A DNA stretch of 64,000 nucleotides from a virus. Lineage: Duplodnaviria; Heunggongvirae; Uroviricota; Caudoviricetes. The position numbers were made by a program, and so were the translations under genes. Location of the stretch: IMG/VR virus record IMGVR_UViG_3300035698_029829, positions 71,427 through 135,426 of that record; one strand, given 5' to 3'. This document shows, one piece after another, positions 1-45,449 of the stretch; the first letter of the stretch is position 1, and each line of letters starts with the position of its first letter. The notes under the pieces were generated by a model that was not told where the DNA came from, made no database searches, and saw nothing but the letters and a program-made list of their open reading frames with translations.

Positions 1-895
1 GGAGTGTTCCTGTGGTGCTTTCGCCCCTTGGTGGAAACGTTCACCACAGGTGTCGCAGCGCACACCCCAGAAATTGGGATACCGATCCAAATACCGCACC
101 GCCGCGCGCGAAGCGTCTAACTCGCGCCCGGAATAATCGTTGAGCACGAGGCATGGCTTGTCGGGTTTGATATTCGCAAAGACCTCGGCACACCGTACTT
201 CCGGCAGATCAGCAGGAGCCTGGAAGATGTGCCCCACGCCTTCTGGCATCACGAATTCCGCATCTTCGGTCATCGGCATGATCGCCGAACAAGCGTGCGG
301 CGTGGTACCCGTTGGAGAGGAGGCAAACTCCGGCCGCTGTCGGTGCCCCTCGATCCATCCCGTGTAATCGAAATCGGCCGAGCCATAGGGGTAGTCTCGT
401 GCCGTCTCCGCACCCGTCGTCGAGCTGGTGCCGGAGGCCCCACCCAACTTCGCCGCGCAAGCCGTCAATTCCGCCATCTCAGGCGGGAAGTGCCGCGCTT
501 CAAAGGCGTAGACGGGCCGCCCACGCGCCGCCGAAACCAAAGCGTGCATGTTAGCAGCGGTGCCGGATTGTGAAAGGATGCCAAGGATCGCCGTCTCGAA
601 GGCGATGAGGTGACTGATCGTCCACTCAATTTCCATGATGATTTGTCGACCCTCGAAAAGCGTACCTTCCGGAAGCGCCTTCAGCTTCGGTCGGCTCCTC
701 ACATTCCACATCTTGCAATGGTTCTCGATGAGTCGCTTGATGAAGGGTGTGCCGAAAAACATACCCGACTTACGAGCGAAGTACCGATAAACCACGCGCG
801 CATTGTAAGGCAGACAGGCCGCCACATCCGCTGCGTTGTAGAAATACACATCGACCGGCACCTTTGATGATAACCGAAAATGATCTTTGCTCATG
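1..895 (-). CDS. NAMPT/NadV-like nicotinamide (nicotinate) phosphoribosyltransferase, 3' part runs off window start
   Basis: Open minus-strand frame from ATG at 893-895 to the window edge. Segments 'NAADVAACLPYNARVVYRYF' and 'LKALPEGTLFEGRQIIMEIEW' resemble NAMPT 'ATDSYKVTHY..VYSYFE' and '[20 protein letters not shown]'. Start overlaps the RNase HII stop (ATGA). Confidence 0.5.
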
Positions 896-1613
896 TCTCT
901 CCCTCTCGTTTCTCATCACGCCAGATGGCGTGGTCGCGCGCCTTGTGAGGCGCGCGGGTTCGGTGGTGGAGCCCAGGCACCAGCCCGTGTTCCAAGATCA
1001 ACTGAATGTGTTGCTTCGTACCATATCCCTTGTGCTGAGCGAGGTTGTACTCGGGATATTTGTGGTGCCAAAAGATGGTCATCGCACGGTCGCGATAGAC
1101 TTTGGCAGCGATGGAGGCGGCCGAGACGTACCAGATGAGATCGTCCGCCTTCACTAAAGATCTGCCGCAGCGTTCAAGGGCGGTCAATCCGCGCTCGTAC
1201 ATCGACCACTCGCCCACACCAAACATCGCCAAGCCCTGAACATCCTTCACCAGTTGCTCGCGGCTCGGCATCCGAGGGCCGTCGATCATCACGAGCCCCA
1301 CGTGCGGCTGCGCCTCGACACATTTAGCTACCGCCTCAGTGACAGCCAGTCGCCACGCTACCTCCATTCCCAGTTTATCGATGGCACTCACCGGCGTCTC
1401 CTGGACGTAGACTACTGCATGGCCTTCTCGTACCAGGCGCATGACGTGTTCCTCGTAAGCGGCCTCACGTTGTTTCTCGGAGAGTTTCTTGGAGTCCCGA
1501 AAGATCTTGGGCAGCGAATTATCGTGACCTAGATCGTGCATGAAGGCGGCGATCACCAGCGGCCCAGCAACCGGCCCCTTCCCAGCCTCATCTATGCCCA
1601 CGAACCAAGTCAT
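891..1613 (-). CDS. rnhB: ribonuclease HII
   Basis: N-term 'VGIDEAGKGPVAGPLV', 'DSKKLSEKQREAAYEE', 'SAASIAAKVYRD' and 'AQHKGYGT' match RNase HII signature blocks. Confidence 0.85.
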   Translation of the reverse strand: MTWFVGIDEAGKGPVAGPLVIAAFMHDLGHDNSLPKIFRDSKKLSEKQREAAYEEHVMRLVREGHAVVYVQETPVSAIDKLGMEVAWRLAVTEAVAKCVEAQPHVGLVMIDGPRMPSREQLVKDVQGLAMFGVGEWSMYERGLTALERCGRSLVKADDLIWYVSAASIAAKVYRDRAMTIFWHHKYPEYNLAQHKGYGTKQHIQLILEHGLVPGLHHRTRAPHKARDHAIWRDEKREGET

Positions 1614-1912: not shown

Positions 1913-2638
1913 TCACTCTTTCTCATCGTCGGTCTTGTCGTCATCGTCGGTCTTGTCGTCATCGTCGGTCTTGTCGTCATCGTCGGTCTTGTCGTCATCG
2001 TCGGTCTTGTCGTCATCGGTCACATCAGCCATCAGTTTCTCGAACACCTCTGCGAGACCGCCCTCACCACTAATCACCGCTAAAGTTTTCTTCCAGTTAA
2101 GCAGGCCACCGCTACCACTGATACCGAGCTTACGCTTCAATTGGCACGTCGGGCAGTCACACTCACCACCCTCACCCGGCTCCCGCGTAACGAACGCACC
2201 CACAGCAAAGTTAACCGAGAGATCCTTTGCGCCGTTCTCAGCCTCCAACCGCGCAAACATGGCGCGCTTAACTGCCTTGTACACGCTCACCATCTCACTG
2301 TGCGCTTCCTTGATGTTGTCCGTGACACGATCCAACAGTGCGACCTTCACCGCCAACAGTTGAAGATCGGACGACAACGACTGATACTCACTGAAGTCAT
2401 CCGCGCATTCCTCCGGACCCTCTCCCGTGAGCTTCTCGCGCTTCTTTTGGATGTGGTTCAGCAGCTTATTTGCATCTGCCCTAACCATCGCTCCGATATT
2501 TGTGGTCTCGTTAACCACGTTGTTCACGTAGGCAACCAGCTCCTCCATGCTCACCAGATTGTCCTTGAGCACCTGCCCTATCGGTTTCTTCGCATCGGCA
2601 GGTAAGGTCAGCTTATTCTCCGGGGGTTTTATCGTCAT
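1913..2638 (-). CDS. hypothetical protein with C-terminal (DDDDKT)x5 acidic repeat and a CxCPTC motif
   Basis: 241-aa ORF; RBS AAAAAAGGAGA upstream; promoter motif directly upstream. Confidence 0.55.
   Translation of the reverse strand: MTIKPPENKLTLPADAKKPIGQVLKDNLVSMEELVAYVNNVVNETTNIGAMVRADANKLLNHIQKKREKLTGEGPEECADDFSEYQSLSSDLQLLAVKVALLDRVTDNIKEAHSEMVSVYKAVKRAMFARLEAENGAKDLSVNFAVGAFVTREPGEGGECDCPTCQLKRKLGISGSGGLLNWKKTLAVISGEGGLAEVFEKLMADVTDDDKTDDDDKTDDDDKTDDDDKTDDDDKTDDEKE
1921..2030. repeat. 18-bp tandem repeat (tcgtcggtcttgtcgtca) x~6, coding
   Basis: Perfect direct repeats visible in sequence; encode DDDDKT units of CDS 1913..2638. Confidence 0.9.
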
Positions 2639-6875: not shown

Positions 6876-8795
6876 TTAATCGTCCCCTTCGACAGTACCT
6901 TCTAAGGGATGACCCTTCGGCCACTCCAAAAAGACCTTTCGACCCTTGAAGATCACCAGATCTTCTCGCTTTGACGCCGCCCTCGGAGTAAACACCCAGA
7001 TTACGCGCACACCACGATAATCGGGCTCCGGACACTCGCCGTCGGTGAAGATCACCACATGCGGAATATGTTTTTCTCGGCAGTAGTCAATAATCGGCTG
7101 AAAATCCGTCCCACCACGGCCCTTTACACCAAAAACCATCTTATTTGGATCGTCGTACTCGACGATAGCGTTAACCCGAGCGTCGCACTGCACCCAGTGT
7201 AATGGCACTTCCAGTTCCTCTACGATCCGGTCCATCTCACGCACATAAAGCCGCAGCTCATCATCGCTCACGGAACTTGACGTATCAGTCCCCACCACAA
7301 TCTGGTGAACCGCATCCATCTTTTTACCAGGGAAAAGTTCATCGTTGCGTCGAGATGGACGGCGGAAGGACCTCAGCGGTTTGATTTCAAAGAGATCCGA
7401 AACATACCCGTCGAGAAGATTCTGCCAAGGCACCTGCGGCCGAGCGTTGATTTTTTCAAGGACAGCTTCAACCTCCCCGGGAAGCAATCCTCGGCTCTTC
7501 TCATAGCGCGCCTGGAATTCATCGGCAGCCGTTCGGATGAGGCCCTCAATCTTATGTTGCACGTAAGCTCGAAAATCTGGATCTGAGAGCGTCGGCGGTG
7601 TAAATTCAGGGTCCTGTCCTTCACCCGCATCCTCATCAACCTCACCCGCATTTCCACACATGGCTCCATGATCATCCATCGTCGTCTTGCCGAGCGCACT
7701 GTGCTGTTGATCGCGTCCATAAATTTTATCGGCCGAAGCGGTTCGATCACAGTCACCAGCTTGCGGCTCACCATTTCCACCGCTTTGACCCTGTTCGCCC
7801 TGTTCGCCCTTTTGATTCTGTTGATCCTGTTCGCCCTTTTGATTCTGTTGATCCTGTTCGCCCTTTTGATTCTGTTGATCCTGTTCGCCCTGTTCGCCCT
7901 GTTGATCCTGTTCGCCCTTTTGATTCTGTTGATCCTGTTCGCCCTTTTGATTCTGTTGATCCTGTTCGCCTTGTTGATCCTGTTCGCCCTGTTGATCCTG
8001 TTCGCCTTGTTGACTGTCGCCCTCTCTTTTTTCATTATTCTCAAAAAGCGACCATCCCCCACCACCAGACTTTTCAACTGGATCGGGAAGCATCCGAGCG
8101 TAGTCTTCAGCAGCCAACTTCCCAGGCATATCGTAAAGCTGAATGGTTTGAGCGAAAGACCACAGCCAATCGTCAGGGATGTACTGGTTTACCTCCAAAT
8201 CCATTCCTATGCTCATCTTATCGTTCAGTTTTTTGTCATCCCCGAAGATCTGCCCACGCGTAAGATGCCGACACACGAGATGTAACAGCTCGTGTTTCAC
8301 ACACCCCATACGAACTAACGAGGTCTTCTCCAATTGGTCGATCCACATCCGTTCGAAGTCAGTAATGCCCGAGCCTCGAAAATAATCAACAACCTGTTCA
8401 TCATCGTATTCTCGTGCTGCGGGCAAGTTCTCCATATTATCGCCACAGAGGCTCATATAAGTCCAGAAAGCAGGATTCACCACCATCCACAGATCACGGC
8501 CTTCAACAGCAACGCAGCAGGTAGGCAAGTACCTTTTCACCTTTACCCACTTCTTGGTTTTCAGAGTGCGGCCCCAGGCACGAGTAAAAACGCCGAACCG
8601 AAATTGAAGACGATTGTAAAAAAGCCCGTACCACGGGTCTTTACGGATTAATCGCCCAATTGCCTGATCGAAACTGTATTTCAGGCGTCGCTCATCATTC
8701 ATGGCCTTTCTCATCATTGTGATATAGGTCGGCAAGTCCCGCATATCGAATTTCATGCCGGGCGGCGGAGCGTCGATGAGCCTGGCTGTTTCCAT
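6876..8795 (-). CDS. metallopeptidase-like (HELLH) + Q/E-rich repeat + C-terminal VWA-domain protein
   Basis: 'HELLHLVCRH' HExxH; C-term 'VGTDTSSSVSD...VIFTDG' MIDAS/VWA; directly downstream of the MoxR-like ATPase. Confidence 0.65.
   Translation of the reverse strand: METARLIDAPPPGMKFDMRDLPTYITMMRKAMNDERRLKYSFDQAIGRLIRKDPWYGLFYNRLQFRFGVFTRAWGRTLKTKKWVKVKRYLPTCCVAVEGRDLWMVVNPAFWTYMSLCGDNMENLPAAREYDDEQVVDYFRGSGITDFERMWIDQLEKTSLVRMGCVKHELLHLVCRHLTRGQIFGDDKKLNDKMSIGMDLEVNQYIPDDWLWSFAQTIQLYDMPGKLAAEDYARMLPDPVEKSGGGGWSLFENNEKREGDSQQGEQDQQGEQDQQGEQDQQNQKGEQDQQNQKGEQDQQGEQGEQDQQNQKGEQDQQNQKGEQDQQNQKGEQGEQGQSGGNGEPQAGDCDRTASADKIYGRDQQHSALGKTTMDDHGAMCGNAGEVDEDAGEGQDPEFTPPTLSDPDFRAYVQHKIEGLIRTAADEFQARYEKSRGLLPGEVEAVLEKINARPQVPWQNLLDGYVSDLFEIKPLRSFRRPSRRNDELFPGKKMDAVHQIVVGTDTSSSVSDDELRLYVREMDRIVEELEVPLHWVQCDARVNAIVEYDDPNKMVFGVKGRGGTDFQPIIDYCREKHIPHVVIFTDGECPEPDYRGVRVIWVFTPRAASKREDLVIFKGRKVFLEWPKGHPLEGTVEGDD
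7789..8015. repeat. 9/18/30-bp nested tandem repeats (ctgttcgcc / cttttgattctgttgatc), coding
   Basis: Encode GEQDQQ(NQK) units inside CDS 6876..8795. Confidence 0.85.
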
Positions 8796-10237
8796 TATCG
8801 CGTACCGCTTTGAAGCGCGGTTACGTCCACATCATTGTCAGGAACTAGCTGGCCCGCCGCCGCGTTCTCTCTGCGAGTTTTCACGTCTCGAACCACGCTG
8901 ATAATAGGATTCCAGTAAATGCGGGTAGGAAAACTTTCTAAAAGATTGACCCAGAACGGCGGCAATTTGTCGATGATTACCTGCTTCACCGATCCTGGAG
9001 CCAGCAGCAGAGCTTGAAAGAAATTACCAAAATCGTCCCACACGTTCTTAGACATCATCTTGACTTTGCCGCCGACAGCCGCGCACTGCGGGTTGGAGCA
9101 CGATTGGTTTTTCAGTCCGCCGGGCACATTTTTCCCACAATAAACACATACCGGAGTATCACGAACGTAGTGTCCGGCTCCGCCGCGCGAGTTGAAAACG
9201 GTCTCGGCGTGTTCCAATGCCTTCTCAAAGGATTCCATGAGCGCAGGCAACTTTGAGTCCCCGTAGTTGGACCACTCTTCGATACGACGACGAACATCTG
9301 GATCAAGTCGATCTGGCGAATGATCACCCGAACCAGGCATTCGTTTGAACATCTCGACGGGGTCGATGGGATTAAAATCCTTCTCATAAAATGTCATAAA
9401 AGTGGTCTTCTCGGCGGTGCCGATAAGTCCCTCAATGATCGACCAGGCAGCAGCCGAATAGGAGTCCTTCCCGAGCACTTCAAGTGCCCCTAGCGTCCGC
9501 GACACAAATTCCCAAGCACGTTCATTAGGTTTCACCAAGGAAAGAATCAACTCGGCGAACCAGCCTATGGGCGACGGGTTCAAGGTGTTAATACCGCCTC
9601 GCTCAACGTGCGCGATAACCGACGAATGTACCTTCTCACGCCGCGCCCACGTCACCCACGCTTCCTTGCTGGAAAGCACCTGAACGTGCGTGAAGCGTGA
9701 AAAGAAAGCCGCACCGAACTGCGTCAGGCCAAACTCATCCTCGTCCGCCGGGTTACAGGCGGCGATGACCATCGTGTCGGGGTGAAACTGGTGTGTGAAG
9801 AGTCTTTTTTCCAACACAAGTTGGTGCACGGCGTTTATTTCAAAGCGACGACCACGGTTGGCCTCATCCAAGAAAATGATGACCGGCTCTTCCAGGCAAG
9901 CGGTCATCCACTGGGGCATCGCATAGGCGGTCACCCAGTTATCGGCATAAGCTGCAAGTAACGCAGGGATAGAGTCAGCCGACGCCGCGCCATTGAAGGC
10001 GAGAAGGACTTCCTTGAAGCCCTCCTTAGCCGCCGACTCCAAAATCGGAATCGCTTTCGGCATTCCAATCAGATCAGTAGCCTCAACTTGAGCGAGAATC
10101 AACGTGATGACTCGACGCTTTACCTCATTCCCGAACTCATAAACGACGGACGATTTGCCAACTCCGTGCTTGCCCCACAGCATCAGATTGATCCTGGCTT
10201 CCATCGCCAATCGCAACTTCGACTTGAGTGTTAGCAA
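8795..10237 (-). CDS. MoxR-like AAA+ ATPase
   Basis: Walker A 'LWGKHGVGKSS'; Walker B-like 'IIFLDEANRG'; TTG start with AAGGGGGAG RBS; promoter motif upstream. Confidence 0.7.
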   Translation of the reverse strand: MLTLKSKLRLAMEARINLMLWGKHGVGKSSVVYEFGNEVKRRVITLILAQVEATDLIGMPKAIPILESAAKEGFKEVLLAFNGAASADSIPALLAAYADNWVTAYAMPQWMTACLEEPVIIFLDEANRGRRFEINAVHQLVLEKRLFTHQFHPDTMVIAACNPADEDEFGLTQFGAAFFSRFTHVQVLSSKEAWVTWARREKVHSSVIAHVERGGINTLNPSPIGWFAELILSLVKPNERAWEFVSRTLGALEVLGKDSYSAAAWSIIEGLIGTAEKTTFMTFYEKDFNPIDPVEMFKRMPGSGDHSPDRLDPDVRRRIEEWSNYGDSKLPALMESFEKALEHAETVFNSRGGAGHYVRDTPVCVYCGKNVPGGLKNQSCSNPQCAAVGGKVKMMSKNVWDDFGNFFQALLLAPGSVKQVIIDKLPPFWVNLLESFPTRIYWNPIISVVRDVKTRRENAAAGQLVPDNDVDVTALQSGTR

Positions 10238-12163: not shown

Positions 12164-14989
12164 TTATCCGCACACGCTGTACCCACACTCGGGGCACTTG
12201 TAACAGCCTCCCTCTAAAATAAGACGACCTTTGCATCCACTGGTTGTACACCTCGGCCGAATCACATTAAGGGTGCGTTCAGGGAGCACTTCATTGGGAT
12301 CGTCTTGATGAGCATCAGCCAATAATCCCTTGAAGCATTGCGCCAGCTCATAGTGAAAGTCCTTACCTCGACTACACTTTTCCAGGTTACGGATGATCTC
12401 TTCAGCCGACGTACCCCGCCGCAAGAGATTCGAGGTAAGCCGAGCCGTCAAATTGCGCGACTTCACAACCTCCAAGAATTCTTCCGGTATCCCCGCATCG
12501 AAGTTCAAGAACACCTCGATAGGCCATTTCCCATCCAAAAGCGTTACAGTCGCAAAAATCTTCCCGCCTCTAATGGCTGGGTCGGTAATACGAAAAACAA
12601 CCGAGGCTTCCTTATCGCTGAGTGGCAACTTTGGGATTGCCTTCGGGAGGATGCGCCGCCCCTCGTCCACCTCCATTTGATCATAGATTTGTTCAGTCTT
12701 CGAATGATGCCGGTAGACGGTCACCCCGAAACACCCCATCTCTCGCGCTTTACGAAAAACGCGAAGCACATCCTCCACCGTCGCGCTCTCCGGCAGGTTT
12801 ACCGTCTTCGAAATGCCATTGTGCACCACCCGCTGACAGACGGCTTGCATGAGTACGTGATCGTCCGGCGTCATAGTAAAGGCTGCCACGAAGTACGGCG
12901 GCAAATTCTTCAAAGGTATCTCTACCTCCCCATTCAGCACCTTATTACGATCAAGGCCCAACACGCGTTCGGCATAATCCAACACTACTTGAGGGTAATA
13001 CTTGCGCGTCACGTAAACAGTGCCGCCGGTACTGGTGGTTTCAGCGTGCTTCCTCTTGAAAGGCGTAAGCTGGTAGAGTGGCTCAATACCCGAAGACTCA
13101 GTGCAGTTGCAAATGAAACTCGTAGTGCCGGTGGGCATCAGAAAAGTGGTATGACAATGCCGAATACCCTCTTTCTTGATGCGCCGAAACAAATCAAGCC
13201 AAGAGTCTATCGAAATCCGCCCGCACTCGATCAATCCAGCTGCGAAAGCGAAGCCACCCTTCTTGAAACGCTCGACCACCGACTGCCGCGAAATGGTCTC
13301 AGTCTTGAGATCGCCTAACTCCAAATCACTAAAGTCCCAACGCGACCCCCGAATCGACGGAAAGCTACCACGCAAAGGATCATCACCCTTCCAAGGCGAA
13401 AAGACATCTTCCGGAGTCCACATGAACGCCGAAGAATCGTCATGAGCGTTGTGCCCAGCAGCTTCCCAAACCGTCATCTCTGAGTGAGGTTTTTCACTCT
13501 CCTTCTTGTGTTTATCGCGCCACGTACCCCAAGCAACCCGTAACTTGTCGGGATCAAACCTGCCTACTGTATTTTTTTGTTTTCGCGCTTCCACAGCCAG
13601 GCTAACCGACTCATCCATGCTCCAAAAGGTCACACGCTCCAATAACTCGGACGCCATCGCTCGCCCTTCCTCGCCATTATAGCGCAGGCCAAGCCGGATC
13701 AGCACATTGGCTAAACCAAAAACGCCCAAACCGATAGGCCGAATGAGCTGCGTTATCAGGGTGGATTCCAAGGTGGGTAAGCGATTCACATCAACCACAC
13801 GATCAAGGGTGCGCGTCATAAGGCGCGTCGTTTTCTCCAGCGTCTCCAAATCCATTTCCCACGCCCACTTCTCACCGCCTTCAATAAACCGCACGTGTGC
13901 ATCAAGATTGATGGAGCCAAGGTTGCATGTTGGGCCACCATTGTCGAAAGGCGGCAGCCCCGAGGGCTCATCATTGTACTCATCGACGCCAGGCAAGGGC
14001 GCGTAAAATTCACCGCACGGATTTGGGTTACGGATGTAGCCGACGTTCGGTACGAAGTTGCGCCGATTCACCTGGTCAATGAAGATGACGCCGGGACAAC
14101 CAGCCTCCCACGCCTCCTCAGCAATGGAACGAAGCACCTTCTGAGCGGATACGGTATCATAAATTACGCCTCCCCAGTGAAGATGCCACAGGCCCTCTTT
14201 AGCCTGACGCACCGCTTGTTCTCCGTACTGGTCGCGCATCTTCTCCGAAGTATGCTCGGGCAATTCCGCCCTCTCCTCGGTGCCACCAGTGGGTCGTCGC
14301 CAACCGTTCGGCGCGATCACGCCCTTATCATCCACGCAACTGAACCAATCTTCGGGACCAGATCCTTCCAGATCGGCCAGGCGAAACAACGCGTCCGGCG
14401 CTGCCACTGACAGGTTTATCGAGCTAAGGTGAGTACCGTCTCCGGAGCGCTGCGCGTCTGATTTGGCGGAAACGAAGGACCAAACATCGGGATGCTCCGC
14501 CCGAAGGACGGCGATTTGAGCAGCCTTTCGAAGCCCTCCGCCGCTCACCGCCTTACCAGCCCAATCATAGAAACCCATGAATGAGACCGGACCCGTGCTC
14601 ACGCCGCCGGTCTTTTCGATGGTGGCCCCAGCCGGTCGAAGCGTCGAAAAGTCTATCCCCACGCCCCCGGCCTTCTTGAAGGTGTCGGCAGTCAGAGTGA
14701 GGGTGGCCATGATGCTCTTGAGGCTGTCGTGAACCGGATAGATGAAGCAACTCGACAGCATCCCCAACCTGCCCCCTGCATTCATAAGAGTGGGGGAAGC
14801 CATGATAGCGCGACGATTGAGGAACGCCTCAAATGCCTCCTTCCGCAGCTTCTCCATACCCTTTTCGCCAAACAACGCCCCCGACACGCGTTCACAGAGC
14901 GCCACCCATTTTTCACCGGGTAGATAGTACCTCTTCTCCAAAAGCTCCTCTATGTACGGCTCCAGGCGAATGTCCTGTTGTCCTTTCAT
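12164..14989 (-). CDS. nrdJ: ribonucleotide reductase, class II (B12-dependent) type
   Basis: 'SPTLMNAGG', 'SSCFI', 'NPCGEF' catalytic blocks; C-terminal zinc ribbon 'CKGR..CYKCPECG'. Confidence 0.8.
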   Translation of the reverse strand: MKGQQDIRLEPYIEELLEKRYYLPGEKWVALCERVSGALFGEKGMEKLRKEAFEAFLNRRAIMASPTLMNAGGRLGMLSSCFIYPVHDSLKSIMATLTLTADTFKKAGGVGIDFSTLRPAGATIEKTGGVSTGPVSFMGFYDWAGKAVSGGGLRKAAQIAVLRAEHPDVWSFVSAKSDAQRSGDGTHLSSINLSVAAPDALFRLADLEGSGPEDWFSCVDDKGVIAPNGWRRPTGGTEERAELPEHTSEKMRDQYGEQAVRQAKEGLWHLHWGGVIYDTVSAQKVLRSIAEEAWEAGCPGVIFIDQVNRRNFVPNVGYIRNPNPCGEFYAPLPGVDEYNDEPSGLPPFDNGGPTCNLGSINLDAHVRFIEGGEKWAWEMDLETLEKTTRLMTRTLDRVVDVNRLPTLESTLITQLIRPIGLGVFGLANVLIRLGLRYNGEEGRAMASELLERVTFWSMDESVSLAVEARKQKNTVGRFDPDKLRVAWGTWRDKHKKESEKPHSEMTVWEAAGHNAHDDSSAFMWTPEDVFSPWKGDDPLRGSFPSIRGSRWDFSDLELGDLKTETISRQSVVERFKKGGFAFAAGLIECGRISIDSWLDLFRRIKKEGIRHCHTTFLMPTGTTSFICNCTESSGIEPLYQLTPFKRKHAETTSTGGTVYVTRKYYPQVVLDYAERVLGLDRNKVLNGEVEIPLKNLPPYFVAAFTMTPDDHVLMQAVCQRVVHNGISKTVNLPESATVEDVLRVFRKAREMGCFGVTVYRHHSKTEQIYDQMEVDEGRRILPKAIPKLPLSDKEASVVFRITDPAIRGGKIFATVTLLDGKWPIEVFLNFDAGIPEEFLEVVKSRNLTARLTSNLLRRGTSAEEIIRNLEKCSRGKDFHYELAQCFKGLLADAHQDDPNEVLPERTLNVIRPRCTTSGCKGRLILEGGCYKCPECGYSVCG

Positions 14990-15614: not shown

Positions 15615-15983
15615 CTAGTGGGGTTCCTGGCGCAGCCAAGCCGCGAGAAGAAGGGTATGGCAAAACCGGCCATCAGAGCAAAAACAGAGCAATATCAACT
15701 CCTCGCAGTCCCGCGTCAGATCGAAAAGCCGCTGCACTGCCCCGGAAGCCCGAGCAGCCAAGTAGATGTCCCGATAGCGAGCAGCGTAGGCCGCCAGCGA
15801 CATCTCACCGGATTTCACCCCCATCACCATCTGCCAAGTAGGGGCGAAAAGCTTACCGATGCCTACCCCGAATTTCGCCGTCACATCTAAGACGACGGTG
15901 CCGGTATTAGGCTCGGTTTCCGATAACTTGGGGAGTTTCAGCTTCTTTGCACGAGCGAGTTGAGCGCGGGAGATCAACATCAA
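15615..15983 (-). CDS. hypothetical protein
   Basis: 122-aa ORF. Confidence 0.4.
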   Translation of the reverse strand: MMLISRAQLARAKKLKLPKLSETEPNTGTVVLDVTAKFGVGIGKLFAPTWQMVMGVKSGEMSLAAYAARYRDIYLAARASGAVQRLFDLTRDCEELILLCFCSDGRFCHTLLLAAWLRQEPH

Positions 15984-17650: not shown

Positions 17651-18466
17651 TCACGAAAAGAACGAGTTTTGGCTGGCCGCAACCGTCGTCTGGCTCGCGC
17701 GAATAACGCTTGCCGAGAGCATTCCGGTCATCTTCTTGATCGAAGCGTGCACGGCTGTATCGTCCTTAAAATCCAGCTCCAGCACGTTCGGAAAGCCGAT
17801 GTCACCCGCCATTTTCTGCGGCGAGAACTGGTCGTAACCCTTGAAACCGACCAAAGCCAGCACCGCGATTTCCTCCTGAGTGAGAGCCTGGCTAAGATTT
17901 TTCACCTCGGCTGTGGTAGCCCGGGAAGAATTGTCCTCGCCATCCGTGAAAACCACGGTGATAAGGCGCACGCGGTAACCATTATCCATCAGATCCTGTG
18001 CGTAGGCACGCGCGGAGGTGAGGGCGGACTTAACGGCGTCGTACTCGGCGGTCATGCCGCTGGGCGAGTAGGCGTCGAAGTCGTCGGTCACGTCGGCGAT
18101 CTTCTTGTGGGCGAACATTAACTGATGCTGCGTGTTGAAGGTCCACCCGGAGACCAGGATGGCGTCCGACTGCTTGTAGCCCTGAAGGTCGGTAATGATG
18201 GACTTGAGAGCCGCCACCACCAGATCGCGGTGCGGCGACATGGAGGAGGACTCATCCAGGATGAAGGTGAGGAGAATCGCTTCCTCTGTATCAAGGGTAT
18301 CCGGCGAAACGGCCTGCACGGTCGCCATCACCGTCTGATCGTCCAAACCGTCGATCAGGAGGTCGGAGATGTTTTTGTTCATAAATCCACCGGAGACCGC
18401 CTGCGAGAGCTTATCCTTCAGGTCAGCCACCGAGGTACTGCTGCGGAGATCTGGTTTGTTTTTCAT
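17651..18466 (-). CDS. von Willebrand factor A (VWA) domain protein
   Basis: MIDAS 'ILDESSSMS'; '...VVFTDGEDN'. Confidence 0.65.
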   Translation of the reverse strand: MKNKPDLRSSTSVADLKDKLSQAVSGGFMNKNISDLLIDGLDDQTVMATVQAVSPDTLDTEEAILLTFILDESSSMSPHRDLVVAALKSIITDLQGYKQSDAILVSGWTFNTQHQLMFAHKKIADVTDDFDAYSPSGMTAEYDAVKSALTSARAYAQDLMDNGYRVRLITVVFTDGEDNSSRATTAEVKNLSQALTQEEIAVLALVGFKGYDQFSPQKMAGDIGFPNVLELDFKDDTAVHASIKKMTGMLSASVIRASQTTVAASQNSFFS

Positions 18467-18500
18467 AGCTCGTTATCCTTTCTCGACTCGTAGACTCAGA

Positions 18501-19511
18501 TTACTGAGCTACGTCGGCCGAAGTGGTGAGTTGGAAGCCCTGCGACTGGAAGAAGTCGAAACGGGCTTTGGCGATGGCCGGGAAATCAATCATGCCACCC
18601 TGTCCATCCGGAATCGGCGACACCGGCGAGGTGCAGTCGGTCAGGATGCGAACCTTGGACAGCGCATCCGGCGAGTTCGCGGCGAACTCCTCGTACAGCT
18701 GCTCCAACGTCTCCAACACGCAATGGCTGGACGCTTCTCCGGCGATCCATATTTCGTCGTAATCGGAGAGGACCTTGAGGAACCCCTGGTTCAGACCGTG
18801 AGCGGTCGGGAACTGGGAGTCCGGAACCAGGACCTCGGGCTTAAGAATGCCGTACATTTCGGTACGCGGCTCGTTACCCTTCCGCAGGATGTTCACCTGG
18901 GAACGGCGCGCGGCGCTGTGGAAGATGATCGCCTCGGCGACGATGGGTACCATCGCGGAACCCGCGCTGATTTCCAAGCAGTGCTCCGGCCAGATGGCCA
19001 ACAACTTCTTGCTGGTTTCCGCGAGCTTCGCCGGATAATCGGCCAACCACTGGGGGTCGAACAGCGGGCTCACTTTACCCGATTTGATGTCTTCATCGGT
19101 GATGACGCGCCAAGGCGTCACCGGGCCACCGGTCGCATTGTCTTTCCAACACAGGCGGTGGAAAATCTGGTAAAGGTAATGGGTGTCCAACGACGCGAAA
19201 ACGCGGGTGATCTGATCACCATACTTGTAGATCAGCTCGGCGACGCGCTGCATGTCGCCAACCGCGCCAGGCACGGACAGTGATCCCGGGAACTCGGCGT
19301 CTGCCGGGAATACGAAGTCGCACTGCGGGTCGATCATCAACAGAGCAACTTGCTTGCCCTTCTTCTTATCGCGGGCGGAAGGCTCCCAGGTCGACTGAAG
19401 GGCGGCGGCGATGATGGTGTCCTCGTTCGGGCGGAACATTTTGCCCGCCCGGTCGGGATCGCTGGCCATCGCGTCTCGGAAAAACTGCGGAAACGGATTC
19501 GGTTTACTCAT
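18501..19511 (-). CDS. isochorismatase/nicotinamidase-family cysteine hydrolase
   Basis: 'ALLMIDPQCDF' (cf. 'LLVIDMQNDF'), 'ASLDTH', conserved Cys region 'GEASSHCV'. Confidence 0.55.
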   Translation of the reverse strand: MSKPNPFPQFFRDAMASDPDRAGKMFRPNEDTIIAAALQSTWEPSARDKKKGKQVALLMIDPQCDFVFPADAEFPGSLSVPGAVGDMQRVAELIYKYGDQITRVFASLDTHYLYQIFHRLCWKDNATGGPVTPWRVITDEDIKSGKVSPLFDPQWLADYPAKLAETSKKLLAIWPEHCLEISAGSAMVPIVAEAIIFHSAARRSQVNILRKGNEPRTEMYGILKPEVLVPDSQFPTAHGLNQGFLKVLSDYDEIWIAGEASSHCVLETLEQLYEEFAANSPDALSKVRILTDCTSPVSPIPDGQGGMIDFPAIAKARFDFFQSQGFQLTTSADVAQ

Positions 19512-19528
19512 CTGAAACTCCTCTTGGC

Positions 19529-21442
19529 TTACTGCCTCTTGTTGGCGACCATACGAAGATGGCCGATTTTCTTCTCGCCAACCACCAATATCCCATCGGC
19601 GTGCGGAACCAAGCGATCTCGCGCATCGATGAAGACATCCGTGGCTGGGAACTCCTTAACCGTCATTCGATCTATTTCTAAAACGATGCCCCGGTCGGTC
19701 GGATGAAGCACCGACTGTCCCATGAGCACTCGTCCATGAACGTCTCTCAAGTTATCCGAGCGATTGGCGTCCTCCTCGTAGGAACGAACGCGCGTCCCAT
19801 CCACACTGCTTAGTACGTCAAGGTAAGAATGTTCTGAGCCATCGGCGTGAATTGCACGGCGCATAACGAGAAGTGTCCCTCGCTCATCGTCGAATCTCAC
19901 CGAGGCACTCACCAGCCTCGCCTTGGCCTGTATGGTGGTCACAGCCAAGTCGAACCTGCCTTTTTTCGACCGCAGGAACCAGCGCGTATCGTTGAAGAAA
20001 CGAATGAACCCTGCAACGGTGCCCTTGGAACTCACTTGCAGCCATGTCTGATTCTCGGCTGCCGCTACCGTCTGATATTCGTTCAAACGATCTTTCAACA
20101 GATCATCCTCTTTGGAGACGAGTACCTGGAGCCCGATCATCCGATAAACGCTGTCGCTCGACGTAGCGAAGACCGGACGCCCATTGAAAGTGCCTGTCTT
20201 CAGCCGCCGCAACTCGCGTACGCGGTCACCGTCGGTCGCGAAGATGGCAATTTCCTCGTCCTTCCCCACCACCAATAGATTACGGGTAACCGCAAAGCTA
20301 AAACCGTGGATGTGTTGATCATACACGTGCGTCTTCTTAATGACGCGCCCGTTGCGCCAGCGGTACAACTCGATACCGCTCGCCTCGTGAACGATCCAAG
20401 CGTATTCGTTCGAACCAAGCGTCTGGCAGTAAAGAATCTCGCCCTGGGTCTGGAACCACTGCGTGTACTCCACGTTGCCCACTCCGATGACCTTGTCGGT
20501 CGGCTTAACCCCCGGCAGTTGCACCATAGTAACAACCTCGGCACAGGCCGGGCAGGTGGGTCGGGTGCTGGAAAACACTGCTCCGCACTTGGGGCAGTTT
20601 CGGAGGCCCGCCAGTTGTTGCTCTAGGAACGCCAGCGAGATCGGCGGTCGCTCCCCCTTCGCGAAGTAGCGGTGGAAGACGTGGAGCAGATCATCCCCCA
20701 TAATCTGCGGAGAATTCGCCCACCTGGGCAACCGCACGTCGGGATGAAATACGTCCATCTTCTCGCGCACCCGGCTCGGCACGTCCCGCAGATTCATGTG
20801 GTTACCCCCGTAAGGGTGAACCAGGAACAATGATTTGAACAAGATAACGGCAAAGGCATACAGGTCGCTTTCAACCGAGAAGTACGTGCTACCATCGTTG
20901 AAAGCCTTGTCATAGAGATCCGGGTCCAAGAAGCTCTCCATCGCTACAATACAAGGGAAGCCCGGTATTTGAAAGGAATCCACGTCGAACCAGGCAGTCT
21001 CCCTTTTCTTGTTGAACTGGATGCCCAAATCATTGAGATCGCCGACCACCACCCCCAGCTTATGAATCGCATCGAGGGTCTTCTTGGCGTGCACTCCGAC
21101 TTTGAGCGCATCGCGGACGGTGATACCATTCTTCCTCCGAAAGTCGCGGTTACCGAGGGCATACACTTCCTCACCGCCTTTGGCGGCAGCCATGACGAAC
21201 CCAACGATCTTCCCTGAGCGCGGGTTACACGCCTTGGCAAGCGGGGCGAGGACATTGGCGGGCCAACCGAAGCCTCCTCGTAAGAACGCTTCGATCTTCT
21301 GAGCGCGTCGTGCTTCCGGCTGATGATAGACCTTGACCACCTGGTTGGGATCGGATAGCCGAGCCACGAAACCCTCGCCTCCCGAGCCGAGCACGTCGCG
21401 TTGCTTAATTGCTACGGTATTACCCTGGATAACAACCTTCAA
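19529..21442 (-). CDS. eukaryotic-like Ser/Thr protein kinase with zinc ribbon and C-terminal repeat region
   Basis: Gly-loop 'LGSGGEGFV', 'VVKVY', catalytic 'VVGDLNDLG', then 'CPKCGAVFSSTRPTCPAC'. Confidence 0.6.
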   Translation of the reverse strand: MKVVIQGNTVAIKQRDVLGSGGEGFVARLSDPNQVVKVYHQPEARRAQKIEAFLRGGFGWPANVLAPLAKACNPRSGKIVGFVMAAAKGGEEVYALGNRDFRRKNGITVRDALKVGVHAKKTLDAIHKLGVVVGDLNDLGIQFNKKRETAWFDVDSFQIPGFPCIVAMESFLDPDLYDKAFNDGSTYFSVESDLYAFAVILFKSLFLVHPYGGNHMNLRDVPSRVREKMDVFHPDVRLPRWANSPQIMGDDLLHVFHRYFAKGERPPISLAFLEQQLAGLRNCPKCGAVFSSTRPTCPACAEVVTMVQLPGVKPTDKVIGVGNVEYTQWFQTQGEILYCQTLGSNEYAWIVHEASGIELYRWRNGRVIKKTHVYDQHIHGFSFAVTRNLLVVGKDEEIAIFATDGDRVRELRRLKTGTFNGRPVFATSSDSVYRMIGLQVLVSKEDDLLKDRLNEYQTVAAAENQTWLQVSSKGTVAGFIRFFNDTRWFLRSKKGRFDLAVTTIQAKARLVSASVRFDDERGTLLVMRRAIHADGSEHSYLDVLSSVDGTRVRSYEEDANRSDNLRDVHGRVLMGQSVLHPTDRGIVLEIDRMTVKEFPATDVFIDARDRLVPHADGILVVGEKKIGHLRMVANKRQ

Positions 21443-21864
21443 GGTTGATCCCTCCTCGGAAGTTCAGGCCGTTCCCCCTTCATTTCCCAATGACAAGAAC
21501 AGGTGCCATCACAGACACACATATCGGCACGCCAATCATCACACGCGCACTGCGGATCGCGTTCAACCCACTCTTTTTGGCTAATCTGTAAGCGGTCATC
21601 GAAGTCATGGATTGCCCACCTGGCTACACAACGGTATCCATCTGCCTTCATTTCCTCCCACTTCGCATATTCCTGCGCCCAAGGAGTATCAGGATAAACG
21701 TACCGAACCGCCGCTAGCATAGCCTCAAGCGAAATAATGCCCGTCACAGGCAACACCTTCCCGTCGGGGTCGTGAATATGCCAAAGCGGCCCCAGAGGAA
21801 GTGGCCATACACCGCCCTCGGCATTGCGTTTACTCAACAGAGACATTGTCACCCTCCTCCTCAC
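21439..21864 (-). CDS. hypothetical Cys-rich protein
   Basis: 141-aa ORF, 'CACDDWRADMCVCDGTCSCH'. Confidence 0.4.
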   Translation of the reverse strand: MRRRVTMSLLSKRNAEGGVWPLPLGPLWHIHDPDGKVLPVTGIISLEAMLAAVRYVYPDTPWAQEYAKWEEMKADGYRCVARWAIHDFDDRLQISQKEWVERDPQCACDDWRADMCVCDGTCSCHWEMKGERPELPRRDQP

Positions 21865-22726
21865 TACCGATCTGTATCAGTTCCATCAGCAGTATGGTGG
21901 CGTCGTCGTCGACCGCCCATTTGGGGCGTTGTCTCCCACCGGGCGCAGAGTAAGGATGACCGCAGTTCAAGCGACGCTGTAACCCCTTCTCACCCTCGAA
22001 GCTGAATAATTCCTCAACGCGGCCCTCCTGAAAGAAGCGAGCCGCGCCATCGGTCGCCAGCAGAAGTCGGTTGGCACCCACATAATAGTGCACTTCCGGA
22101 ATGGTGATAACGGATCGCTGGCCTTTGGTAAGCCACGAACTCGGCACCCAATGATAAGCCGGATAGTGAGGCATGTTGTCTTGGTCCACGATATGAAGGT
22201 CGATCACCGGCGGCGCACCAGGCACCTCCGCATAGAGGATGCCGTCGCCACAACTGCCAAGCCATGCCTGGTCATCCACAGTAACCGCGAACAGCACGGT
22301 AGACAACAGATAATGGCTGAGGAAGGAAAGTTGGTCGCCCCGGTGGCAGTTGATCCCGAGATCAAACCCCACGCAGCGCATGGTGTCAGCCACAAAGAGC
22401 TTGGTACGCTCAATGATGAAGTCACTCAGTTCACCGGCAAACCGGCACTCCGCGTAATCGTCACGCCGTAACAGGTTGTGAAATTTCTTGGAAACCAGGG
22501 CGAACAGATCGTTAACCAACCGTAACGCAAGCATCGACGCCCCCACCTCCGAGTGACCACCCGAACCACAACCATCGGTAACAACCGCCACGGTAAGGTG
22601 CTTCAGAGCGCCACCCGCGTCCCGCCTTAGTGCTGTTCGCGTGCAAACGCCGTCCTGAAGGTTGAGGTTTTGCTTGGCGTGAAAGGTGCCTTGAATCGAA
22701 GCCGTTGTGTTGGTGTACTTCTTCAT
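21830..22726 (-). CDS. PP2C-family Ser/Thr phosphatase
   Basis: 'VAVVTDGCGSGGHSEVGAS' (cf. PP2C 'VfDGHGG'), 'LLLATDG'. ATG (MKKYTN) at 22726 immediately after the promoter. Confidence 0.55.
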   Translation of the reverse strand: MKKYTNTTASIQGTFHAKQNLNLQDGVCTRTALRRDAGGALKHLTVAVVTDGCGSGGHSEVGASMLALRLVNDLFALVSKKFHNLLRRDDYAECRFAGELSDFIIERTKLFVADTMRCVGFDLGINCHRGDQLSFLSHYLLSTVLFAVTVDDQAWLGSCGDGILYAEVPGAPPVIDLHIVDQDNMPHYPAYHWVPSSWLTKGQRSVITIPEVHYYVGANRLLLATDGAARFFQEGRVEELFSFEGEKGLQRRLNCGHPYSAPGGRQRPKWAVDDDATILLMELIQIGSEEEGDNVSVE

Positions 22727-22733
22727 AGGCGCA

Positions 22734-22769
22734 GTTCTACCAAAAGCTAGAAGGTTTGTCAAGAGTTTT
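22734..22769 (-). promoter_or_regulatory. conserved sigma70-like promoter (short leader)
   Basis: TTGACAAACCTTCTAGCTTTTGGTAGAAC then ATG 7 nt downstream. Confidence 0.55.
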
Positions 22770-23176: not shown

Positions 23177-23662
23177 TCAACGTACCTCCTCCCCCGGCGC
23201 GTAGAGCTGCCACACGCCATCCGACCGCACCAGCAGACGCGGCTTCCCGCGTGCCTTTCGCAGAGTATCCAGTGTCCCCCGCGAAAGCCCATCCCAGAAT
23301 GCTATCAGCACGTCGCAGTTCTCGACTATGGTGGAATTTCGCTTGAATCCGGCGCTTCGGCCGTGTTTTTTCCAATCAGGGTGGTAAATGCAAGCCTTGT
23401 AGCCACGTGCCTGCGCCCATTTTTCACCCAGAGAATCCGCCCCCGCTGCACCACCAGATACGACCGCACCAACCTTCAGGCGGGAAGCCAACGCATCCAA
23501 AACGTCGAACGTCGTCTTCTCATTGGTCCACCCACGGCTACCGACTACTGCGAGTCGAACCTCAACGGGTTCCATCATTAACCGTCGAAGGAGCGTTCCC
23601 CACCAAACCAACTTTCCATTGACCAAGCGAACCAGCATCCCCGAAAAAGTTGATAAAGCCAT
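23177..23662 (-). CDS. SLOG/DprA-like Rossmann-fold protein (GGAxGxD motif)
   Basis: 'VVSGGAAGADSLGEKWA...CDVLIAFWDG'. Confidence 0.45.
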   Translation of the reverse strand: MALSTFSGMLVRLVNGKLVWWGTLLRRLMMEPVEVRLAVVGSRGWTNEKTTFDVLDALASRLKVGAVVSGGAAGADSLGEKWAQARGYKACIYHPDWKKHGRSAGFKRNSTIVENCDVLIAFWDGLSRGTLDTLRKARGKPRLLVRSDGVWQLYAPGEEVR

Positions 23663-24071
23663 ACATCTGACTGACCAACCGCTTACCTATCTTCACACGG
23701 TTCCCAGCATTCCCCTCCACCGTATTGATCCACTTGCCGTCCTCGCTCACCGCAAGCACGTAACCGGTATGACCAGTGCCCTTTAACTGTCCGGCGGAGT
23801 TGGTGTAGAGCATCATGAACTGATCGCCGGGAACCGGATTGCTCATCTTAGTAAAACCAAGTTTCACAGCCTGCTTCCACGCCTGATAGCAGGAAGCAAA
23901 CTTCGCATTAAGGGGATAACCGTTGAACGCCTGATTTGCCACCCAGGAAGTGAAGAGGCAGCACCAGGCCCATCCAGGCTCGCCGCCGTACTTGATGACC
24001 CCATCGCCCCAGTTAGAGCCGTTGGGCTCCTCGTGCACGCCGAATTGATGCTCAAACAGAGCAACCTTCAA
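23562..24071 (-). CDS. CHAP-domain peptidoglycan amidase/peptidase (endolysin catalytic part)
   Basis: Cys block 'GEPGWAWCCLFTSW' and His block 'GHTGYVLAV'. The frame has no ATG before the catalytic Cys (TTG only) and overlaps the stop of the upstream PG-binding ORF. Confidence 0.6.
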   Translation of the reverse strand: MKVALFEHQFGVHEEPNGSNWGDGVIKYGGEPGWAWCCLFTSWVANQAFNGYPLNAKFASCYQAWKQAVKLGFTKMSNPVPGDQFMMLYTNSAGQLKGTGHTGYVLAVSEDGKWINTVEGNAGNRVKIGKRLVSQMYGFINFFGDAGSLGQWKVGLVGNAPSTVNDGTR

Positions 24072-24382
24072 CAGGGGACGTTCCGGCTCTCGCCGATGTC
24101 ATCGGGGATATACAGGTCGAAGTAATTGCGTTGCGACACACCCGAATGATTGTAGAGCGCCCACCAAGTGTTCTTCCCCACCCAACCGTCAATTTCCAAC
24201 GACTCGCCGTCCTCACCGATGTGGGTCATTTGAAAATAACCCACGGCATCCTCAGTAACCTCGTCGTACAGCCCGTTAACGACGAGCTGGCCAAAGCCGT
24301 ACCCTTGTTGGATCAGAATGTGTTGGAGTTCTTCCACCGACTCGCCGGTGGAACCCAGTCTCAAAACCGGTTTGTTGTTCAT
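24068..24382 (-). CDS. peptidoglycan-binding domain protein (endolysin N-terminal part)
   Basis: 'LRLGSTGESVEELQHILIQQGY...DGWVGKNTWWAL' PG_binding_1-like. Confidence 0.55.
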   Translation of the reverse strand: MNNKPVLRLGSTGESVEELQHILIQQGYGFGQLVVNGLYDEVTEDAVGYFQMTHIGEDGESLEIDGWVGKNTWWALYNHSGVSQRNYFDLYIPDDIGESRNVPC

Positions 24383-24690
24383 GCTGCGCCTCCCTTTTGA
24401 CCCAGCCGCTCGACACCCAGGTCGATGAGTTTAACCATCTGCGGCATCATAGCGATGCGTCTTTTTTTGGATTCCATATTCCACCACCACAGAAACTCGT
24501 CGTGATCCTCGACCGTCTCAAGTTTTTTCACCGCTTCCTCTAATGTACTAAACCGCTTCCCGCAACCCAAGCACTTACGTCTACGCTTGGTGCCCACCTC
24601 GTCCCCACCGACGCTTTTCGGACGACTGTCTATTACCCTACTGCCCACCCTACGTTTGCAGTAGGGGCATATAAGCTGATTTTCACCCAC
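24379..24690 (-). CDS. NrdR-like zinc-ribbon protein lacking ATP-cone
   Basis: 'CPYCKRRVGSRVIDSRP...RRRKCLGCGKRFSTLEE' closely parallels the NrdR N-terminus. Only 103 aa, so no ATP cone. Confidence 0.5.
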   Translation of the reverse strand: MGENQLICPYCKRRVGSRVIDSRPKSVGGDEVGTKRRRKCLGCGKRFSTLEEAVKKLETVEDHDEFLWWWNMESKKRRIAMMPQMVKLIDLGVERLGQKGGAA

Positions 24691-28386: not shown

Positions 28387-28881
28387 TTATAGAGGCGGAT
28401 AGACCAACACGAGGAACGGGAGCGCCTCCAGGGCCTCCAAAATCAACGGCCGCACATCATTCCAGGCAAGCCCCCCATTAGCGCAGCCAAGCGCAGGTAC
28501 CGCCACCGAAATAACGCCAAGCGTAGGAAGCACTTTCACCAAACTCACGAGCCCAGCACGCACGTCATCAAGCCTCGACGGCTCACGCCAATGACGTTTG
28601 GTCGGCAGATTCACAACGAAGCGCGGACCCTCCGGCGGCCACAAACCGGTTGCCGAGATGAAAATATGACCCGGCGCGACGAGGCCAACCTCGCAAGCGT
28701 ACCGATAGTCGGCGTAAACCTTCGGGAAGCGCCGCTTCACAGCGAGGGCGATGCCCTTCCCCATGACGCTCACACAGTTTACGGTATTAACCAGCGCCTC
28801 CGCACCAGACGCGAAGATGTCGCCGGTCGTCTCAACGATCATCGTCAACCCTTGATGGTGTTCGGGTACTTCTCGACCCAT
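28387..28881 (-). CDS. macro-domain (ADP-ribose binding/hydrolase) protein
   Basis: 'ALVNTVNCVSVMGKGIALAVKRRFP' (cf. 'VNAAN..L.GGGVAGAI'), 'GCANGGL'. Confidence 0.6.
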   Translation of the reverse strand: MGREVPEHHQGLTMIVETTGDIFASGAEALVNTVNCVSVMGKGIALAVKRRFPKVYADYRYACEVGLVAPGHIFISATGLWPPEGPRFVVNLPTKRHWREPSRLDDVRAGLVSLVKVLPTLGVISVAVPALGCANGGLAWNDVRPLILEALEALPFLVLVYPPL

Positions 28882-29162
28882 ACCCAGATTTCCAGGAACT
28901 TCCCATCCTCGCTGAACTTGGAGAAATACCCCGGCTTTGTGATCCTAGTGCCGGAGTCAAACAAAGCAGCGACAAGTTGGTGCTTAGCCTGCGTTAATTC
29001 CGCGAGGAAATCCGCTTTCATACTTGCAATGTTCTCATCGACCGCCGCCTGGACCGAGCTGATCGTCAGACCACCCGTTAGGGCGGTGGGATAGCCGTGC
29101 TTTTCGTATCTACGACCGGCGTACTCGAACGCCTCAGCGAGGTCGTCCAGTAGGTTGGTCAA
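28845..29162 (-). CDS. hypothetical protein, N-terminus abuts IS right end (possibly truncated)
   Basis: Only a TTG start, located at the IS#1 boundary; begins with the TTGACCAAC promoter-like remnant. Confidence 0.3.
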   Translation of the reverse strand: MTNLLDDLAEAFEYAGRRYEKHGYPTALTGGLTISSVQAAVDENIASMKADFLAELTQAKHQLVAALFDSGTRITKPGYFSKFSEDGKFLEIWVWVEKYPNTIKG

Positions 29163-45405: not shown

Positions 45406-45449
45406 GTTCTCTCCCTTCAGCTCGCGCTGTTCTTGGTTACGAGTTTGTC

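Follow-up and report, generated by a model that had tools for sequence, protein, structure and literature searches.

A predicted deamidated route from nicotinamide to NAD+ in a presumed large phage, with a nicotinamidase-like gene in a kinase, PP2C and VWA cassette

Depletion of NAD+ is a major strategy by which bacteria resist phages, and the reconstitution of NAD+ by phages is a proven counter-defence (bioRxiv 10.1101/2024.02.11.579819; PMC13464706). Three such NAD+ reconstitution pathways (NARPs) have been shown experimentally, none of which passes via nicotinic acid: NARP1 combines Adps with Namat and NARP2 combines Nampt with Nmnat (bioRxiv 10.1101/2024.02.11.579819), and NARP3 combines PnuC with NadR (PMC13464706). 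Metagenome work has reported jumbo phages with pncB-nadD-nadE clusters, as well as pncA genes in phages (Microbiome 2024, PMC11662467), and phage Preiss-Handler genes as such are already known from it. A further described system is the TerY-P triad, in which a VWA protein and a PP2C phosphatase stand together with a Ser/Thr kinase that has a zinc ribbon (described by Anantharaman et al. 2012; summaries in PMC11090510 and PMC7159879). Here, we consider a stretch of 64,000 nucleotides of viral DNA, called the window in the following (positions 71,427 to 135,426 of IMG/VR record IMGVR_UViG_3300035698_029829), which encodes part of a nicotinate phosphoribosyltransferase (NAPRTase)-like protein at its start and a nicotinamidase-like (PncA-like) enzyme inside a cassette that resembles the TerY-P triad.

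Judged by its gene content and its strand bias, the window appears to come from a large uncultivated phage. The contig L001 (ENA ERZ27316532), which has 25.7 kb and represents another assembly of this phage, agrees with window positions 1-11083 at 99.8-100% identity and reaches about 10.4 kb past position 1. With a probability of about 0.6, the phage encodes the deamidated (Preiss-Handler) pathway leading from nicotinamide to NAD+, by which NAD+ would be kept up or restored in infected cells. The PncA-like enzyme (18501..19511) would first hydrolyse nicotinamide to nicotinic acid, which the NAPRTase at the window start would couple with phosphoribosyl pyrophosphate to give nicotinic acid mononucleotide (NaMN). 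NaMN would be converted to nicotinic acid adenine dinucleotide (NaAD) by host NadD, or possibly by a phage nucleotidyltransferase of the HIGH family with 167 amino acids (aa), and a phage NH3-dependent NadE would finally amidate NaAD to NAD+. Nicotinamidase, NAPRTase and NadE account for three of the four Preiss-Handler steps when the window and L001 are taken together. The missing step can be supplied by host NadD, an enzyme essential in most bacteria. A nicotinamidase makes biochemical sense only together with NAPRTase and NadE, and both exist in this phage. The occasion for the route would, by analogy with NARP1-3, be host NADase defences that release nicotinamide.

An earlier note on this DNA, made from the sequence alone, had proposed a phage gene set for NAD+ salvage and ADP-ribose processing of the kind found in NARP1 and NARP2. 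Genes for building NAD+ and for processing ADP-ribose are indeed present, but the route is a different one. Pfam scans of the approximately 80 open reading frames (ORFs) of the window and of the L001 genes contained no Prs-like Adps, Namat, Nampt, NMNAT/NadM, NadR or PnuC, and from this it follows that the route is neither NARP1, NARP2 nor NARP3. Both families that define NARP1 (Adps, PF14572, and Namat) are missing from these genes; for NARP2 there is no Nampt, and the sole nucleotidyltransferase is RfaE-II-like; for NARP3, neither PnuC nor NadR appeared in the scans. The four genes that the note had singled out lie scattered across 28 kb, in the midst of genes for replication and nucleotide metabolism, and do not make up one operon. 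An anti-defence role for any of them is suggested by analogy.

Enzymes of the putative route

The reading frame at the window start (1..894, minus strand) has its ATG at 894..892, not at 895, and stays open as far as position 1, where it leaves the window. Its product is 100% identical to residues 1-298 of a protein of 425 aa (P0001) whose complete gene is found on L001, which continues beyond the window start. The gene start shares 4 nt with the stop of an RNase HII gene (891..1613). In Pfam, the window-start protein matches QRPTase_N (1e-9) and, weakly, NAPRTase_N, and all of its nine NCBIfam matches are to NAPRTase or NadC models, the best of which are nicotinate phosphoribosyltransferases. 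These models place it among the type II phosphoribosyltransferases that act in NAD metabolism. NAPRTases of the archaeal short type have a QRPTase_N-type domain at the N terminus and a catalytic TIM-barrel with GTxPHA, VDT..E, RLDT/S and GxGS motifs; when P0001 is aligned with annotated NAPRTases, GTxPH200A, D253, E258, R279-D281-T282, G375xG377 and K405 are invariant. A profile of its family, searched against the PDB, finds the Pyrococcus furiosus protein 2i14 (1e-122) and the Thermoplasma acidophilum NAPRTase 1ytd (2e-96) first, then other NAPRTases and then quinolinate phosphoribosyltransferases (QPRTases). In a Foldseek search with the AlphaFold model (AF2, score 88 for pLDDT, a predicted form of the local distance difference test), the top six matches are NAPRTase chains.

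The earlier note had seen in this gene a NAMPT (NadV) relative. The superfamily was right, but profiles, motifs and fold all place the protein with the NAPRTases. Searches of the PDB by sequence (phmmer) and by profile matched no NAMPT chain, NAMPTs come from rank 7 downward in the Foldseek search with 10-12% identity, and PF04095 together with the NAMPT N-terminal domain was not found. The closest solved relatives are NAPRTases. A QPRTase or a Namat was likewise set aside, as profile and fold searches rank NAPRTases first (Namat has rank 48 by fold). From its sequence, P0001 is thus a divergent NAPRTase of the archaeal short type, on the branch of 2i14 and 1ytd and with the motifs kept; catalysis is predicted, and family and context point to nicotinic acid as the substrate.

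Consider, on the other hand, that the phosphoribosyltransferase uses something else: nicotinamide, as a functional NAMPT; quinolinate, as a QPRTase; or an ADP-ribose pyrophosphate donor in the manner of Namat, in which case NaAD or NAD would be formed directly and the adenylyltransferase step bypassed. P0001 has three clade-specific insertions near conserved motifs (approximately residues 168-195, 205-240 and 287-325 in the alignment), which could alter specificity, and it scores below all equivalog cut-offs, with 90 bits for PRK08662 against an NCBIfam cut-off of 243. Namat itself shows that the fold can switch donor specificity (PMC12774641), and the adenylyltransferase step of the proposed route lacks an assigned enzyme. 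Against this stand the absence of a Prs-like Adps gene from the window and L001, the rank of NAPRTases above QPRTases and NAMPTs in every search, and a co-occurrence with nicotinamidase-type genes and NadE which fits nicotinic acid. We regard another substrate as very improbable. The clade is rare, with 13 cluster representatives at E<=1e-30 among 1.84 billion; no homologue was found in GenBank phages by tblastn, nothing in a single-sequence scan of IMG/VR, and no PHROGs match for the window-start protein. A distant clade member (P0010) lies 2 kb from a canonical isochorismatase-family gene of 196 aa.

The second enzyme is a cysteine hydrolase of 336 aa (18501..19511, minus strand), a long form of the nicotinamidases. 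Its catalytic triad (D61, K211, C264) and its metal ligands (D109, H111, H177) are invariant across 30 homologues, and the triad aligns with the IVDxQNDF, KG and HCV motifs of Pnc1 and Mycobacterium tuberculosis PncA; the isochorismatase homologue thus has the Asp-Lys-Cys triad whose absence would have spoken against a nicotinamidase. The Asp/His/His metal site (DxH ... WPxHC) sets nicotinamidases apart from other isochorismatase-like hydrolases. A family profile built from the 30 sequences puts yeast Pnc1 (5e-17) and the PncA of M. tuberculosis (3e-10) ahead of isochorismatases, and with the AlphaFold model (pLDDT 96) nicotinamidases take the top ten places among the structure matches, above isochorismatases. 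The assignment to the isochorismatase/nicotinamidase family made in the earlier note is borne out by these rankings. By sequence and fold, the protein belongs to the nicotinamidase class, with nicotinamide as its probable substrate. It is a member of a family of about 300-340 aa that some sources label nicotinamidase-related; a precomputed PF00857 match exists for 7 of 120 listed homologues. No match was found in PHROGs, and nothing in the single-sequence IMG/VR scan.

The gene for the PncA-like enzyme has the top coding score among the ORFs scored and the highest G+C content at third codon positions (GC3) that was measured, 0.78. GC skew is negative throughout the window (-0.04 to -0.21), apart from the 2-kb bin 18001..20000, where it is +0.015 and the genes lie on the same strand as elsewhere. 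An overlapping ORF on the plus strand (18369..19283), considered as the real gene on account of this local anomaly, lost on coding score. The near-zero skew, together with the high GC3, is possibly a sign of separate origin.

The third enzyme is encoded beyond the window start. About 8 kb past position 1, L001 encodes an NH3-dependent NAD synthetase (NadE) of 291 aa (Pfam NAD_synthase, 3e-58; TIGR00552, 175 bits where the cut-off is 63.65) that carries an SGGFDS PP-loop; its spacing from the P0001 gene on L001 is 7.5 kb. The gene for the 167-aa nucleotidyltransferase (CTP_transf_like) starts 5 nt after NadE. This protein matches NadD weakly (E 0.024), its HxGH motif reads HAYH, and its linkage to NadE is seen in close relatives only. 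One relative lies near an NrtR-type regulator. At most, the protein can be called a candidate for the NaMN adenylyltransferase. L001 also encodes a Nudix hydrolase of 136 aa with an intact Nudix box, whose best matches, all weak, are the Nudix halves of NadM-type enzymes; it may serve to dispose of ADP-ribose. The region that holds the phosphoribosyltransferase and Nudix genes is flanked on L001 by RlaP, a nucleotidyltransferase of an RNA-repair pathway (11628-12506), and by a CCA-adding enzyme with PolyA_pol and HD domains (16637-18169).

A kinase, PP2C and VWA cassette around the nicotinamidase-like gene

The PncA-like gene is part of a cassette on the minus strand (17651..22762) with the order PP2C, kinase, PncA-like, VWA, which had escaped the earlier note. 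The PP2C-family protein phosphatase (21830..22762, minus strand) scores 29.9 bits for PP2C_2 against a cut-off of 24. Immediately upstream of the PncA-like gene lies a gene (19529..21442, minus strand) for a protein that combines a protein kinase-like domain with a CxxC...CxxC zinc ribbon and, at its C terminus, a region rich in strands. Among 15 homologues of this protein, 12 match Pkinase, G21, G22, K37, D135, N137 and D153 are invariant, and the ribbon reads CPKC...CPAC. Immediately downstream follows a gene (17651..18466, minus strand) for a TerY-like VWA protein (VWA, 8e-8) with the metal ion-dependent adhesion site (MIDAS) motif DESSS. In their architecture, the phosphatase, the kinase with its zinc ribbon and the VWA protein match a TerY-P-like triad. 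The cassette is not classed here as a known defence system, since PADLOC, whose coverage of TerY-P was not checked, gave no match for its window proteins at E<=0.01. A limited literature search found no description of a PncA-like gene together with such a triad.

An alignment-based scan of IMG/VR gave 110 viral loci with the PncA-like family, and inspection of their ORFs showed a recurring gene pattern beside the PncA-like gene, with VWA, PP2C and a protein kinase of about 570 aa as its Pfam partners. A hidden Markov model (HMM) census was then made of 41 non-redundant loci, of which 38 are viral, one is the close relative L083 and two are bacterial. The PncA-like gene has a VWA partner in 39 of the 41, a PP2C partner in 37 and a kinase partner in 36, in varying gene order; a further example of the cassette is found in L085 (8001-12211). 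NadE lies within 10 kb of the PncA-like gene in nine loci, a full canonical NAPRTase is present in six and NAPRTase fragments in two more. In about ten loci, which mostly lie on contigs of 160-480 kb, genes for a canonical NAPRTase and/or for NadE are attached to the cassette or interleaved with it. To exemplify, the 329.8-kb contig L004 has NAPRTase-NadE-PP2C-kinase-PncA-VWA on one strand (4812-11754), L077 has NAPRTase-NadE-PncA-VWA-PP2C-kinase (6931-14424), and in L056 (10067-17373) NAPRTase and NadE are placed between the PP2C and kinase genes. Since NAPRTase and NadE recur joined to the cluster of the PncA-like gene, nicotinic acid would be the product of its enzyme.

This linkage can also be read differently. 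The PncA-like protein may be a working part of the TerY-P-like cassette, as effector, sensor or substrate-processing amidase, rather than an enzyme of salvage; it might then act on something other than free nicotinamide, and the cassette would have a function that does not concern NAD+ supply, for instance superinfection exclusion or host takeover. The near-obligate presence of the triad genes in the census speaks for such an arrangement, and so do the location of one of the bacterial loci (Bradyrhizobium) in a prophage-like region, the many contigs of 40-80 kb without NAD genes nearby, the extra segments of the PncA-like family relative to canonical PncA, and the fact that TerY-P-like modules are bacterial defence systems (PMC11090510). 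We nevertheless find it unlikely. The full nicotinamidase active site, metal site included, is invariant, the recurrence of NAPRTase and/or NadE in the same cluster is hard to explain unless nicotinic acid is the product, and the window proteins of the cassette match no PADLOC model. In about three quarters of the loci, the PncA-like gene has the triad beside it and no NAD genes within 10 kb, and from this it follows that the kinase, PP2C and VWA proteins are its primary partners. Most likely, the triad would regulate the NAD+ pathway or couple it to another process.

The joined loci also bear on what the NAD+ would be used for. The same Preiss-Handler enzymes could serve the phage's own demand for NAD+, where NAD is consumed in the repair of RNA or DNA, in ligation or in ADP-ribosylation, rather than counter-defence, and a reading of this kind, as auxiliary metabolism of 'NAD-jumbo phages', has been put forward (PMC11662467). 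In the window, the phosphoribosyltransferase gene belongs to a block of genes for replication and repair (RNase HII, Pol III alpha, a uracil-DNA glycosylase (UDG)-like protein, ribonucleotide reductase), RlaP and the CCA-adding enzyme lie beyond the window, and the neighbours of the nine NadE loci include Nudix (four members), PARP and WGR (three each), two RNA ligase families (three and two), RtcB (one) and RlaP (two). RlaP, RNA ligases and RtcB thus recur near NAPRTase-NadE in other viral loci, and this hints that NAD+ supply is tied to RNA repair. On the other side, the window itself showed no enzyme that consumes NAD, and a nicotinamidase is useful mainly while nicotinamide is being released, as by NADase defences. 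Own demand in place of counter-defence is a possibility that we rate as doubtful, and the two uses are compatible with each other.

A number of observations weigh against the Preiss-Handler route itself, in addition to the insertions and the low equivalog score of P0001 and the many loci in which the cassette has no NAD genes nearby. NadE has been seen only on the second assembly of the phage, and within the window the two NAD genes are 18 kb apart. The best model for the 167-aa nucleotidyltransferase is rfaE_dom_II (79 bits, below the cut-off), and its bacterial relatives adjoin a SIS-domain gene, taken to encode a heptose-pathway isomerase. The PncA-like protein has no Pfam match at E<=0.01, Isochorismatase (PF00857) included, and differs from canonical PncA by an N-terminal extension of about 50 residues and an insertion of about 60 residues between DTH and WPxHC. 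Finally, no structural gene was recognised in the window, and the phage identity of its source is an inference.

A more specific proposal can be made, which we offer as tentative: that the cassette of nicotinamidase, kinase, PP2C and VWA genes, to which NAPRTase and NadE are attached in large phages, is a phosphorylation-controlled Preiss-Handler pathway and a fourth NARP, which would turn nicotinamide set free by host NADase defences into NAD+, with the triad as its sensor or gate. The locus and its relatives are a concrete candidate for a fourth route of NAD+ rebuilding. What is unusual here is a non-orthologous NAPRTase of archaeal type and a nicotinamidase that is nearly always encoded with a eukaryote-like kinase, PP2C and VWA. 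If the triad does regulate the rebuilding of NAD+, a viral module of the TerY-P type would have a first function, and protein phosphorylation would be linked to the arms race over NAD+.

ADP-ribose-related genes and other content of the window

Two further genes relate to ADP-ribose and are best read as separate from the NAD+ route. The first, correctly named a macro domain in the earlier note (Pfam, 1.3e-15), is more specifically a stand-alone macrodomain of the DarG type (28387..28881, minus strand; 164 aa, with M14 at 28842 as the likely start), with matches to NCBIfam antitoxin_DarG (1.5e-58) and PADLOC DarG (8e-61). Its K95 (PTKRHWR) aligns with the first Lys of PTKKHWR in Thermus aquaticus DarG, which by our own count we take to be the catalytic K80. 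Among solved structures it matches the M. tuberculosis DarG macrodomain, 5m3i (8e-45). The protein covers positions 2-148 of the 338-position DarG model (198.7 bits against a cut-off of 250) and lacks the C-terminal domain that binds DarT, and no DarT family was found in the neighbouring ORFs. By analogy, it is most likely a separate, orphan anti-DarT2 DNA ADP-ribosyl glycohydrolase that would remove ADP-ribose of the DarT2 type from phage DNA, and its DarG type suggests that it undoes the ADP-ribosylation of DNA rather than serving NAD salvage.

The second is a SLOG protein (23177..23662, minus strand) of the YAcAr family, with a start probably near 23578-23560, judged from the L083 orthologue. 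The GGAxGxD motif already noticed in it reads GGAAGAD, and the family assignment is above the Pfam cut-off (PF10686, 7e-15, 55 bits against 28.2). No solved relative was found by sequence, and its gene lies just upstream of the cassette in three loci only, the window, L083 and L043. For SLOG domains in phages, a role in processing signals derived from ADP-ribose has been predicted by comparative work (PMC9503650).

Nearly all genes of the window are on the minus strand, and those that can be recognised make up a block of replication and nucleotide metabolism. Besides RNase HII and the UDG-like protein, they include the N-terminal part of Pol III alpha, with at most about 32% identity to phage homologues, and a ribonucleotide reductase of 941 aa (12164..14989, minus strand), whose copy in L083 (16313-20419) has 1368 aa and an intein (Intein_splicing). 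There are also a C5 DNA methylase, an HNH endonuclease, an SPFH protein, an NrdR-like zinc-ribbon protein (24379..24690) and a superinfection-exclusion protein of the GP17 type. A lysin with PG_binding_1 and CHAP domains is one gene of 269 aa in L083 and two ORFs in the window (24068..24382 and 23562..24071, minus strand), a split that is either genuine or due to faulty assembly. A MoxR-type AAA ATPase (8795..10237, minus strand) is followed by a protein of 639 aa with DUF2201 metallopeptidase-like and VWA-like domains, and this pair (6876..10237, minus strand) is the second in the window to contain VWA. A DUF488-N3a protein ('active DUF488-N3 subclade'; 15615..15983, minus strand) is kept in L083. 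Three TnpB genes (OrfB_IS605 and Cas12f1-like TNB) are found at 29159..30304 (minus strand), 45386..46750 (plus strand) and 59791..61326 (minus strand), the second of which is opposite in strand to nearly all other genes; L083 has one copy in another position, adjoining its DUF488 gene. Megablast with window positions 1-6000 gave no DNA-level relative among GenBank phages, and tblastn gave no match among phages for a protein of 607 aa. The window and L001 differ by small indels at 1964..1969 and 7858..7934, the first of which alters the length of the ORF at 1913..2638 (241 aa in the window, 223 aa in L001).

Comparison with known systems

The DarG of DarTG2 (PDB 5m3i, 5m31) has a closely similar macrodomain with the conserved Lys, but the phage protein is without the DarT-binding half and without a DarT partner. 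In this it is like the phage orphan antitoxin AdfN (PMC11825919), which likewise is a stand-alone phage copy of the enzyme domain of an antitoxin. The two differ in that AdfN is a NADAR domain directed against DarT1, while the macrodomain of the window is predicted to act against DarT2. It is a ready anti-DarT2 candidate, in parallel to the NADAR-type AdfN that has been shown to counter DarT1.

With PncA and Pnc1 (PDB 2h0r, 3pl1, 2wt9), the PncA-like protein shares the isochorismatase-like fold, the Asp-Lys-Cys triad and the Asp/His/His metal site. It differs from them in length (336 aa against about 180-220 aa), by its extension and insertion, by falling below the Pfam model and by being tied to a signaling triad. 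The TerY-P triad has the same three proteins and the same kinase architecture of kinase, zinc ribbon and strand-rich domain, whereas the cassette described here occurs in phages or prophages, always includes the nicotinamidase-like gene and sometimes has NAPRTase and NadE interleaved.

The 'NAD-jumbo phages' share with the present one a phage NAPRTase and NadE in a large phage and the predicted formation of NAD+ from nicotinic acid. Here, however, the NAPRTase is of the archaeal short type, with three insertions and from a rare clade, the genes are dispersed, no NadD is recognisable, and a long nicotinamidase lies inside a kinase, PP2C and VWA cassette. NARP1-3 have in common with the proposed pathway that phage enzymes remake NAD+ from breakdown or precursor molecules, and NARP1 and NARP2 also start from nicotinamide. 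None of their defining proteins was found, and the route predicted here would instead pass through nicotinic acid, NaMN and NaAD, with amidation by NadE as its last step.

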